DNA from: an uncultured Methylomirabilota bacterium
GTDB taxonomy: Bacteria > Methylomirabilota > Methylomirabilia > Methylomirabilales > 2-02-FULL-66-22
Direction: 5' to 3'
DNA: 64,000 nt
Assembly (NCBI GenBank): GCA_963705305.1
Contig: OY970067.1
Location: 1,216,001 to 1,280,000, forward strand
Part shown: in pieces, positions 43,755-53,135 of the stretch
How positions within the stretch are numbered: position 1 is the stretch's first letter
How the letters are laid out: each line of letters starts with the position of its first letter
The notes under the pieces: model-generated
Seen by the model: only the letters and a program-made list of their open reading frames with translations
The model's database searches: none
Told to the model about the DNA's origin: nothing
Made by a program: the position numbers and the translations under genes

Positions 43755-44057
43755 TGATTGACCCTCCCATAGGTCCAGGACGATTATCGACAGCGTCCGG
43801 GAAGTTACTCACGTCTCTCAAGGGCATGTATGTGTTGGAATAAGCTGAGACACAATGGGGCGAAGCGACAAGATGGCGGTCGCGACGCGACAAGACACTG
43901 ACACAAAGAGAGCGTTTTGCTTGTCATCCTCATAGAGCATGTGATGACTCAGCATGGATAGATAATGTTTGTCGGACCAGCTGAGAGGGAAGCGACTGCC
44001 AGATGACAACAAAATTATCTCCTATTAATTCGATCTTTATGGCTGTAGCTACGAGAT

Positions 44058-44080
44058 ATGTAACATGTAATATGTTACAT
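44058..44080. promoter_or_regulatory. Inverted repeat ATGTAACAT-N5-ATGTTACAT, putative operator
   Basis: Perfect 9-bp arms in the AT-rich region upstream of the operon starting at 43754. Confidence 0.55.
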
Positions 44081-44212
44081 GAATTTAAAAAATCAAGGCA
44101 AATAATCCGAAGGGAAATTGAAAAACTGAGAATTGATGAAGTTAAATAGAAACAAGCTGTTACTGACATTTTGCAAGGAATTTTGTCCAGTGATAGAGTG
44201 ATATTTCTGGAG

Positions 44213-44520
44213 AACCGGTCCTCCCGGCCGGGCGGATACACCACCGATCCGGCCCACCGCCCGCTCGACATGAACGCTTTTGCCTGGCGGCCGGCCCGGC
44301 TGATCCGCTGGGCGGGCACCATCGGGCCGAACACAGCGCGGCTCGTCGCCGCCATGCTGGCGAGCCAGGCCTACCCCGAGCGGGTATATCGCTCCTGCCT
44401 GGGCCTTCTCCGACTGGGGGCCCAGCATGCCGTCGAGGAGATGGAGGCAGCCTGCCATCAGGCACTACGCCGCGGGGCCACGTCGTACAAGGCCGTCGAG
44501 CTGCTCCTCCGGACTCGACG
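44213..44520 (+). mobile_element. IS21-family IstA C-terminal remnant
   Basis: YTTDPAH..W.PARLIRWA..IGP.T...PE..YRSCLGLLRL...EAAC..AL....SYKAV. Confidence 0.75.
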
Positions 44521-44568
44521 GCAGACGAGCGGCCGCTCGGAAACTGCGGCGGCGGGACGGCTGAAGCG

Positions 44569-44859
44569 TCAGACCGTGTGGTCGCGGGAGCGTGCCAGGC
44601 GTCGCAGCGTTGCTCGGTCGCCTGCGACGAGCGTCTCTTTCTTTGCCCGGGACCAGCGCTTGACCTGCGCCTCCCGCTGTCGTGCGGCCGAGCAGGTGGG
44701 CAACTCCTCGATGTAGACGAGGGCGATGGGGGGGTCGAGGCGCGTGGTGCGGCAGGCCTGCCCCGCTCGGTGCTCTGCGTAGCGCCGATCGAGATCGGTG
44801 GTGGCGCCGGGGTAGAGCGCGCCGGAGCGGAGGCGAAGGACGTAGCTCCAGGTCGGCAT
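44569..44859 (-). CDS. Stand-alone GIY-YIG nuclease (UPF0213/YhbQ-like)
   Basis: WSYVL..LYPGAT, RRYAEH, AARQREAQVKRWSRAKK; alternative start at 44874. Confidence 0.88.
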   Translation of the reverse strand: MPTWSYVLRLRSGALYPGATTDLDRRYAEHRAGQACRTTRLDPPIALVYIEELPTCSAARQREAQVKRWSRAKKETLVAGDRATLRRLARSRDHTV

Positions 44860-44861
44860 CG

Positions 44862-44966
44862 GGCCCCTCGACATCGCTCGGGGCCATTTCGCCGCGGCTC
44901 CAGAGGAGCCTTGAGCAAGACGCAAGACGGCGGCAGCACCGTGGTGCCGCCGCCGTCGCGTCGAAA
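44862..44966. repeat. Cluster of REP-like hairpins between the tRNA fragment and the GIY-YIG start
   Basis: GGCCCC-TCGACATCGCTC-GGGGCC; GGCTC-CAGAG-GAGCC; TTGAGCAA-[GACGC..GACGGCGGC..GCCGCCGTC.GCGTC]-GAAA. Confidence 0.65.
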
Positions 44967-45061
44967 TGGCTCCCCGGGTAGGACTCGAATCCGCCTGCGG
45001 CGGATTTCGGCTGGTGCCTCAACCCAACCGAGCGGTTAATCCGCCGACGGCGGACTCGCTC
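44967..45061 (-). pseudogene. tRNA-Asn 3'-half copy interrupted by palindromic inserts
   Basis: First 23 bp identical to 45117-45139; TCCGCC-N3-GGCGGA at the T loop and at the anticodon loop. Confidence 0.75.
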
Positions 45062-45073
45062 CCCCAAAAGCCA

Positions 45074-45101
45074 GGACCCGCAGCGCGTACGCTCCGGGTC
45101 C
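45074..45101 (-). terminator. Hairpin downstream of the tRNA 3' end, terminator-like
   Basis: GGACCCG.AGCG-CGTA-CGCT.CGGGTCC followed by a short T tract on the minus strand. Confidence 0.45.
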
Positions 45102-45116
45102 CTGTCGAGCACCTGC

Positions 45117-45171
45117 TGGCTCCCCGGGTAGGACTCGAACCTACAACCTAGCGGTTAACAGCCTCTCGCTC
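45117..45171 (-). other. 3' portion of tRNA-Asn(GTT), probable island attachment site
   Basis: Minus strand reads GGCTGTTAACCGCTAGGTTGTAGGTTCGAGTCCTACCCGGGGAGCCA; no 5' acceptor strand. Confidence 0.85.
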
Positions 45172-45221
45172 AATGTTGAGCAACCTTTAGAATAAGCTAG
45201 TTACAACATTCAAAAAGGTCG

Positions 45222-45242
45222 GTGGCGGTTTCAGTGGCGGTT
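45222..45242. repeat. GTGGCGGTT direct repeat, putative integrase arm-type sites
   Basis: Two copies 3 bp apart, about 50 bp from the tRNA fragment. Confidence 0.5.
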
Positions 45243-45452
45243 CGTTTTTTCCCCGTGAGCGCGGTATTTTGGTTTTTCGGGAACCACAGGTGTGCCTTGG
45301 CTTACCCGGAGACTTGGGATGCGGATGCCAAGAACGATCTGAGGACACCCAGGTCGTCCACCTCACCTCGCACCTTCGGGCACCTCAATATGACAGCATT
45401 CCCTTACCCACTGGACCAATTTCCGGGGGCAAGGTCACAGAGACATTTGGAC

Positions 45453-51888: not shown

Positions 51889-53135
51889 TGACCTCCGCAA
51901 ATATTCTCGTACATGAGTCACGCCACCAACCGCTCGAGGCCATACTCGTGGTGCAGGCCGCCAAGAATCGATCGCGCCACGACCCGCATGTCTCGCGGGA
52001 GATGATGCCCGGCGATCGGCGCGACCGGGAGCCCGGGCGGCGGGGCCGGCAAACCGGGCCCGAGGGATGGATGAGGGCGGCCCCGGTTATACTGGACTTG
52101 CCACAAGCGAAGCACGCGGCGCACGTGCTCCTCCCCGAACGGGATCAGGAACTCCAAGCATTCCCGGCGTAGAGAACCCAGCAGTCGCTCGCAGGGCGCG
52201 TTCGCCGTCGGCGCCTGGGCGGGCGTTCGGAGGACCCGGACGCCCATCGCGGGCACCACGGCATCGAGCCCCGCCGAATAGATGCTGTCCCAGTCATGGA
52301 GGATGAACCGATAGGCGTGCGGTGCGGCGAGGATCTCCCGGAACTGCTGTAAGGTCCACGCGGCAGTCGGGTGGGCGGTAACATTGACGTGCACGAGCCG
52401 GCGGCTGCCCACCTCAAGCGCCACGAAGACGTAGAGGACTCGGAACGTTGCGGTCACCGCGACGCAGAAGTCGCAGGCAACGACGGCGTGGGCGTGGTTG
52501 CGGACGAAGGTGGGCCACCGCTGCCCGCTTGCGCCGACCGGGTCCCCGTCCCCGCCCCTCGCGCGGTCCAGGTCCCGGCGGACGGTGCGGGGCGACACCC
52601 GGATCCCAAGCTTGAGCAGCAACTCCGCCGCAATCCGCTCTTCGCCCCACGTCGGATTGTCCCGGGCCATGGCGGCGATCAGGCGTTGCAGCTCCGCGGG
52701 GAGCGGGGGGCGTCCCGGGCGCGACCGCCAGCGCCAGAGCAGGCGGAACGCCTGGCGGTGCCAGCGGATCAGGGTGGCCGGCTGGACGATCGTGAGCGCC
52801 TCGCGCCAGGCGAACCATCGCGCGAGGAGGACGAGCGTGAGCCGGAGCGGGTCCGACGCCCGCCGGGGGTTCCCCGGCCGCTCGCGGTAGAGGGCCAGCT
52901 GTTTCCGGAGGAAAAGATTCTCGGCGGCCAGGCCGTCCGCGATCGGAGGCTGGTCTGCACGAACCGCACGAGATCGATCGCGAGCCCGACCAGAACGCGG
53001 GCACAGTGACCGCATGGCTGTAGAGGTTGCATAAGCTCGGATTCCCCTCTTTCAGGCGTGAATTGGTGATACCAATGAGGGCGGGGAAGTTTAGCAGGGC
53101 GGCGCGGGGTGCGGATCAATTATTTGCGGACGACA
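51889..53135 (-). mobile_element. rve/DDE element copy 2; transposase 51918-53032 frameshifted near 52932
   Basis: Ends TGTCGTCCGCAAATAA / TGACCTCCGCAAATAT; long identical blocks shared with copy 1. Confidence 0.8.

Follow-up and report, generated by a model that had tools for sequence, protein, structure and literature searches.

A small GIY-YIG nuclease gene and its hairpin leader as a candidate integrase-free cassette at tRNA gene ends

A single-domain GIY-YIG nuclease gene and the hairpin-rich leader preceding it seem to us, with moderate confidence, to form a selfish, integrase-free tRNA-end cassette of ~0.5–0.7 kb that was probably inserted by means of its own nuclease. The cassette sits directly behind the CCA of a tRNA, mainly tRNA-Asn(GTT) and also tRNA-Gln or tRNA-Glu, and the tRNA stays intact. 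Its layout, two fixed junctions, a host-matched duplicate of the target, target switching and a patchy distribution are all observed across homologous loci. We describe the copy found in a 64,000-nt stretch of DNA (the window, genome positions 1216001–1280000), where the cassette is overlaid by the traces of two other systems.

Results

Three layers at one site

All parts of the locus that the first-pass annotation had named are present and co-oriented on the minus strand. The features are, in window coordinates:

45172..45249, minus strand: island end arm with two AACCGCCAC repeats, outside the cassette; the arm recurs at four other genome sites
45117..45171, minus strand: tRNA-Asn 3′ part, copy 1 (nt 21–75), 54/55 identity to the intact gene
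45066..45104, minus strand: hairpin and CTTTT between the tRNA copies, from sequence and fold
44967..45061, minus strand: tRNA-Asn 3′ part, copy 2, with two palindromic inserts; 95/96 identity to a second genomic copy
45040..45054, minus strand: TCCGCCGTCGGCGGA, a TCCGCC-N3-GGCGGA palindrome in the anticodon arm of copy 2, in place of CGGCTG (6 nt)
about 44990..45024, minus strand: 35-nt double-hairpin insert in the T arm of copy 2, ending in a TCCGCC..GGCGGA-type palindrome
44860..44966, minus strand: cassette leader with three hairpins before the ATG, from the layout kept in homologs, arm covariation and fold
44569..44859, minus strand: single-domain GIY-YIG nuclease gene, 96 aa, from Pfam, conserved residues and a fold model
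44216..44575, plus strand: C-terminal remnant of an IS21 istA, abutting the nuclease stop codon, from tblastn to annotated IS21 istA (41–48%)

The site is not one module but three layers: (i) the probable attR of an island, (ii) the debris of a second nuclease system, and (iii) the cassette of leader and ORF. The 321-nt stretch before the ORF is strongly structured (fold z = −7.5 against 100 shuffles), and copies 1 and 2 have an exact 23-nt repeat in common, a string found four times in the whole 5.6 Mb genome. ARAGORN detected no intact tRNA within the window, and a scan at this locus called no sigma-70 promoter. As had been noted, the unit contains no integrase; one is found 4 kb inside the island beside the intact tRNA-Asn, and the IS21 istA remnant adjoins the stop codon. 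Elsewhere in the window, positions 43900–44200 are AT-rich and probably comprise one end of an IS together with a promoter region; the IS21 remnant borders them on one side and a 2-hydroxyacid dehydrogenase gene on the other. A transposase-like ORF with an rve_3 integrase core lies at 51918–53015 (minus strand), with a similar one at genome positions 1209071–1210099.

Copy 1 as the probable end of a ~90-kb island

Judged by sequence and surroundings, copy 1 is most likely an attR that belongs to a ~90-kb island in the intact tRNA-Asn. We read it in this way because it is preceded by the arm with AACCGCCAC repeats, because the island carries an integrase and because G+C is lower in the island (0.63 from the intact tRNA-Asn to copy 1, versus 0.67–0.68 outside). 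The intact tRNA-Asn(GTT) at c1350953–1351027, from which copy 1 differs at a single position, is the only one in the genome and lies 90 kb upstream of copy 1 on the same strand; the mismatch is also present in reads of sequencing run X1, and copy 1 scores 33.1 bits against the Rfam tRNA model. A tyrosine integrase (genome positions 1345607–1346767) is encoded 4 kb into the island from the intact tRNA-Asn, and a motif matching the island arm sits just within that end of the island. Copy 1 thus shows what marks an island attR: an intact tRNA and its 3′ duplicate in direct orientation, an integrase between them and arm repeats. attR remnants of tRNA-integrated islands account for copy 1 in full, but leave the leader, the gene and the fixed, integrase-free 20-nt duplicate described below unaccounted for.

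The AACCGCCAC-repeat arm also stands ahead of tRNA-Asn pieces at genome positions 1210315, 1199961, 3014772 and 4780410; three of these four joined tRNA-Asn pieces carry the anticodon-arm palindrome. Several island arms have a CTGTG.TTCCCGA motif 60–110 nt ahead of them; at 1210135 the motif follows the arm.

Copy 2 carries inserts linked to a different GIY-YIG clade

Copy 2 is disabled by its two palindromic inserts, and the cassette's left junction lies at its CCA. A second copy-2-like string, without a nuclease gene, is located at genome positions 3014772–3014677 (95/96 identity). The hairpin that separates copies 1 and 2, at about 45104–45071 and followed by CTTTT, looks like an old tRNA trailer, judging from kin (G003, L134) in which the same arrangement stands directly behind an intact tRNA-Asn; it was not called in a terminator scan.

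The double insert of copy 2 also occurs in L050 and L134, each time on the host-specific tRNA sequence, and the anticodon-arm palindrome is found in 4/6 non-functional tRNA-Asn copies of this genome, in seven fragments from related genomes and in no intact gene. We assign the TCCGCC..GGCGGA inserts to another putative system, that of a type-B GIY-YIG clade, since palindrome-bearing tRNA copies occur at 5/10 clade loci with a type-B gene versus 0/67 without one (77 loci; Fisher p 1e-5, a value overstated by kinship among loci). G003 shows an intact tRNA, the hairpin and a palindrome copy in succession, with a type-B GIY-YIG gene upstream and no gene of the cassette's own clade (clade A). The type-B gene of the present genome lies in a unit (1351395–1351027, minus strand; L121) composed of a copy of the first 17 nt of the tRNA, a leader, the gene and the intact tRNA-Asn. 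Genome-wide, the bare TCCGCC-N-GGCGGA pattern shows no excess (34 versus 19–34 in controls), so it is informative inside tRNA copies only.

The mirror-image module of L121 recurs in the related loci L127, L132, L133, L134 and L141. In L129, L133, L134, L139 and L141, an inverted tRNA-Asn 3′ end is positioned ~15–30 nt ahead of the 5′ end of a tRNA gene or fragment.

The nuclease and its family

The 96-aa protein is a GIY-YIG superfamily member and has both the fold and the Tyr/Gly/Arg/His/Glu catalytic set. PF01541 (GIY-YIG; 45.3 bits, E 1e-11) is the sole Pfam family matched by the ORF (44859–44569), and NCBIfam gave a chance match only. G18, R26, H30 and E63 are invariant in 73 homologs, Y6 and Y16 are at least 90% conserved, and the AlphaFold model (pLDDT 91) has its top fold matches in UPF0213 and Slx1. 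UPF0213/YhbQ (PDB 1ZG2, 1YWL) and Slx1 are the best matches in both sequence and fold, with E 1e-15 over 80 positions for the solved UPF0213 proteins; the genome's own UPF0213-like gene falls into a separate clade, and distant homologs, UPF0213-like ones included, have a tRNA at 0/27 loci. The cassette clade is distinct in the tree described next.

A search of 50% clusters put the size of the family at 35 clusters (E no higher than 1e-30). We built a profile from 73 of 120 homologs among the matches listed and retrieved the best 79 of 557 metagenome loci. In a quick tree (134 rows, 95 columns; 11 duplicate loci and ORFs <66 aa left out), the query falls within a 76-row clade (SH-aLRT 99) that includes neither type B nor the group around a gene flanked by SRM repeats. 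The median dN/dS of 0.17 (71 pairs of 51 ORFs) indicates purifying selection.

Two decayed fragments of the nuclease gene (genome positions 1195324–1195228 and 3575672–3575798; 86% and 92% identity) have no tRNA tail in front. Several different small GIY-YIG clades, at least four and one of them a ~70-aa type, are often stacked at tRNA-Asn loci, as seen in L032, L036, L037, L041, L049, L050, L067, L069, L072, L077, L084, L129 and L139.

Homologs lie directly behind tRNA ends

Among 30 GTDB loci, a tRNA precedes the three closest to the query (53–63%) at a distance of 107–125 nt; none of the remaining 27 has one. In the best 79 of 557 metagenome loci, an intact co-oriented tRNA lies within 600 nt at 39, consisting of 32 Asn, 6 Gln and 1 Glu. 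We then scored 65 of the 77 clade loci, setting aside 12 with <250 nt upstream. The upstream tRNA ends and TCGAC..GCTC leader that the first-pass annotation had proposed to look for are present in 57/65, in each case with the CCA of a tRNA or tail immediately followed by the leader: 36 loci have an intact adjacent tRNA, 3 an intact tRNA further away plus a tail, 18 a tail only and 8 neither. Where the present locus has tRNA halves, most homologs have an intact tRNA upstream. After dereplication at 80% the association stands at 37/43; many of the loci are related, and p-values overstate it.

Since the tail-only pattern had been written from these same loci, we tested it in evenly drawn genomes, in which clade carriers amount to 6/351 and 4/301 (10 loci). 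The held-out set excludes the seed and one locus with a 61-nt flank; 7/8 of its loci show a tRNA end plus leader (3 with an intact tRNA, 4 with a tail; one of the fitting loci repeats the sequence of L054), and 1/8 does not. Conserved housekeeping synteny, named beforehand as the observation that would speak against a mobile module, is ruled out by flanks that differ among loci. Gln-linked members are scattered at several places among Asn-linked ones in the quick tree, on weak support.

The distribution is patchy within the genus. Only 1/15 intact tRNA-Asn loci carries the cassette, in frameshifted form, and one attR carries a leader remnant; a profile search of 20 same-genus genomes gave a match in one, through a gene of the sister group, and did not pick up the frameshifted copy. 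In the proposed comparison for empty sites, a GIY-YIG gene of some kind lies near 7 of the 15 tRNA-Asn loci and is missing from 8; no near-identical pair of genomes with an empty and a filled site was found. Reads of three sequencing runs contain no empty-site joint for the cassette; the single read joint (45062–45173) reproduces the arm-plus-palindrome form known from genome position 3014772. Broken gene copies are common (L003, L083, L102, L136, L156, L163), some of which may be assembly errors. No close relative turned up in phage, plasmid or viral collections, the best phage match being 42% alongside one weak viral locus.

In sister or nearby clades (L105, L111–L115), the same TTCGAC leader follows tRNA-Glu, tRNA-Ala, tRNA-Asn and sequences that resemble tmRNA 3′ ends.

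A conserved leader with the halves of a REP doublet

In the window, the leader is composed of TTTCGACGCG, a variable hairpin, TTGCTCAAGG, a second hairpin, CGCGGCGAAATGGC and CCCGAGC-N3-GTCGAGGG; CGCGGCGAAATGGC can fold back to pair with the left arm and with the last 4 nt of the tRNA, and the CCCGAGC-N3-GTCGAGGG end contains a GAGG tract resembling a ribosome-binding site. Homolog leaders keep the order TTCGAC, variable hairpin, GCTCA, second hairpin, fold-back arm and CCYGAGC-N-GTCGARGG. At least 11 of 15 Watson–Crick pairs form in 48/52 distinct leader arm pairs, and the arms covary, with 12.6 pairs to their own partner versus 8.6 when swapped (observed value reached in 0/10,000 swaps). The long stem takes in the last 4 nt of the tRNA in 36/48 distinct arm pairs and tracks non-GCCA tRNA ends in 4/6. 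Rfam holds no family that matches the leader.

The two leader ends, TTCGAC-N-GCTCA and CCYGAGC-N-GTCGARGG, form an inverted doublet of imperfect palindromes beside a nuclease gene, and gene-less copies of the doublet are dispersed in the genome, two properties in which they resemble REP and REPIN sequences. The compact REP core occurs at 37 genomic sites versus 0.46 expected, 34/37 with both halves, and these sites are mostly nested in a dispersed composite repeat. This repeat (~200–250 nt, about 35 sites, e.g. 813053, 911800 and 2119477, with AGGCTG..AAAA ends) nests the REP doublet, one TCCGCC..GGCGGA palindrome and GGGTACCC palindromes. A second leader, or a second copy of its right half, comes directly after the gene in L002, L159 and L164, for a leader-gene-leader arrangement.

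A host-matched copy of the tRNA tail closes the cassette

Behind the gene, a copy of the upstream 20-nt tRNA tail is present with at most 4 mismatches at 11/63 loci, and on the opposite strand at none. The full form reads tRNA..GGTTC/GA..CCA, TTCGAC-hairpin leader, GIY-YIG gene, ..GAAGG or ..GACC, and the copy of GA..CCA (20 nt), where the slash marks the start of the duplicated stretch. The unit from CCA to CCA spans 472–713 nt with no integrase within, and the clade shows no link to integrases. Partial copies counted too, 8 loci have a tail copy that starts right after GGTTC (−20); in 2 more it starts at −21, via a shared C. Among 44 distinct tails, the copy is best matched by that of its own tRNA in 8 cases, is tied in 2 and is closer to another in 1; in total, tail copies differ from their own tRNA by 18 mismatches, compared with a permutation mean of 50 (0/10,000 as low). 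One Asn-linked and one Gln-linked cassette align from immediately after CCA to immediately before GA..CC, each with its own tail and with different tRNAs outside. The earlier suggestion of duplicated tRNA 3′ ends finds its counterpart beside homologous genes; that this nuclease made both halves in the window is not supported.

A recognisable downstream tail copy is absent from 52/63 loci, the window's own included, where the best match downstream of the ORF has 9 mismatches of 20. The right end is lost here: a REP half plus tail copy would lie where the IS21 remnant now is. At L033, an island-arm-like repeat follows the tail copy, and at L097 (3556–4827) group II intron pieces start right after the cassette's duplicated tail region.

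Discussion

A model for insertion

From the two junctions, the following route can be proposed. The nuclease would recognise the stretch from T arm to CCA of an empty tRNA gene together with its own hairpin ends, the substrate probably being single-stranded or extruded hairpin DNA. Two nicks ~20 nt apart, one at TTC^GA within the T loop and the other immediately behind CCA, would open the target; host repair would join the hairpin-ended cassette, and fill-in would make the tail duplicate. Once occupied, the site may be protected by the fold-back stem that covers the CCA end. To our knowledge, no strand-joining activity is known for a 96-aa nuclease. Because the fixed junctions define predicted cuts and substrates to the base, the model is directly testable.

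For the window, the local history may have comprised (i) the placement of the cassette behind the palindrome-disabled duplicate of the tRNA-Asn 3′ part, (ii) integration of the ~90-kb island in tRNA-Asn, which would have displaced the cassette block, and (iii) an IS21-related event that would have removed the right end of the cassette. On this history, the copy in the window is a stranded member without its right end and with an intact gene.

A wider reading goes beyond what we would call probable and is offered as a possibility: an element of ~0.5 kb, with a 96-aa nuclease as its sole protein, would insert itself by staggered nicking and also mobilise TTCGAC/GTCGAA REP doublets, and different clades would partition the tRNA among D loop, anticodon arm and 3′ end. 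A cassette that moves as proposed would rank with the smallest autonomous mobile elements known and represent a new use of tRNA genes as harmless landing sites; a branch of uncharacterised small GIY-YIG proteins would gain a function, and a REP family without known transposase a candidate enzyme. tRNA 3′ fragments beside small GIY-YIG genes are then not always att sites of islands.

Alternative explanations

Duplicates of tRNA 3′ tails are the usual scar of tRNA-targeting integrases, and islands and attR halves occur at tRNA-Asn in the same genus. As tRNA-Asn is here also an island hotspot, 20-nt tails could be left by an integrase working in trans, with the T loop or 3′ end of the tRNA as att and the 20-nt copy as attR; the REP-flanked nuclease gene would then be mere cargo, and the island-arm-like repeat after the tail at L033 fits such an origin. 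We nevertheless consider it unlikely, though deserving of weight, since the CCA-to-CCA units are just 472–713 nt long and integrase-free, both junctions are fixed and formed by hairpin motifs, the tail matches the host after Asn/Gln switches, and phage, plasmid and viral collections contain no close relative. The idea from which the analysis started, that both tRNA halves and the spread of the TCCGCC..GGCGGA palindromes are the work of this one nuclease, draws on the adjacency and co-orientation of the parts and on five homolog loci with palindrome-bearing tRNA copies. It is scarcely credible now: all five of these loci carry type B (0/67 without it), G003 combines a palindrome copy and type B with no clade-A gene, and an island arm precedes copy 1. 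One module of both halves and all hairpins is not supported.

The purifying selection on the gene (dN/dS 0.17) would also suit a domesticated guard, an Ssn-like single-strand nuclease retained behind the tRNA promoter that cuts incoming ssDNA bearing a tRNA 3′ att or the REP doublet and so limits islands, the duplicates being by-products of repair. The restriction of transforming DNA by SsnA (PMC11893778) and the 37 genomic sites of the REP core versus 0.46 expected are in line with this role. However, the gene is rare and patchy (6/351 and 4/301 genomes) and often broken, and a 90-kb island entered the tRNA-Asn beside the cassette in this very genome, which leaves the role improbable. Action at the level of RNA, in which the leader would be a structured trailer of the tRNA, paired with its acceptor end, and serve as guide, regulator or substrate, would explain the strict co-orientation with the tRNA and the stem over its last 4 nt (36/48 arm pairs, non-GCCA ends tracked in 4/6). 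Yet DNA hairpins or fold-back copying predict the same covariation, the DNA-level duplicate requires a DNA event, the leader has no Rfam match, and SsnA binds no RNA (PMC11893778). We regard this explanation as very unlikely; the RNA guidance raised by the first-pass annotation was not borne out by any analysis run.

Relation to known systems

The selfish tRNA-end cassette appears, by analogy, related in logic to two known systems, SegB and Ssn, but is neither; they are the closest precedents, and the first-pass annotation named neither of them. SegB, encoded in the tRNA cluster of phages T4/T6, is a free-standing homing endonuclease of GIY-YIG type. It recognises GGTTCRANTCC..CCAR, cleaves directly behind CCAR and prefers the tRNA-Asn gene (PMC2330249); the consulted passages of PMC13096335 deal with phage SegB only. 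The likeness extends from a GIY-YIG gene beside tRNAs to the site itself, which is the stretch duplicated here plus the left junction of the cassette. SegB moves by homing from one homologous region of phages to another, whereas the cassette is chromosomal, with hairpin ends, a 20-nt target copy and a single 96-aa domain. Membership among Seg proteins was rejected: there is no PHROG match, the best phage match is 42% and there is one weak viral locus.

SsnA of Neisseria, a 94-aa GIY-YIG protein, cuts ssDNA beside its own hairpin; its family corresponds to CDD cd10448 with NTS/SRM repeats, for which Chenal et al. 2025 (PMC11893778) suggest that the origin may be IS-like. Both systems consist of a single-domain GIY-YIG gene of ~95 aa (<150 aa) flanked by its own palindromic repeats. 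Ssn membership was nevertheless rejected, since no SRM lies in the 500-nt flanks of 66 clade loci or of the window's locus and since, in the quick tree, the cassette clade is separate from the group that holds the SRM-flanked gene. The word "tRNA" is absent from the main text of PMC11893778.

A RAYT element was likewise rejected, as the enzyme is a GIY-YIG protein without a match to the Y1 HUH transposase and is tied to tRNA ends. For CGTC-type REPs, the consulted part of Di Nocera et al. 2013 (PMC3733652) reports no dedicated transposase; we set these beside the cassette REP by that published description, not by consensus sequence. Full-text literature searches, judged mostly by abstract openings, turned up no account of GIY-YIG cassettes in chromosomes at the ends of tRNAs. 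A "COG2827 RNA motif" is absent from the main text of PMC5737381, whose supplement may hold a related RNA motif. In the present genome, a GIY-YIG gene with SRMs on both sides (genome positions 903094–903387, L124), probably of Ssn type, served as a control, and SRM matches number 70 genome-wide.
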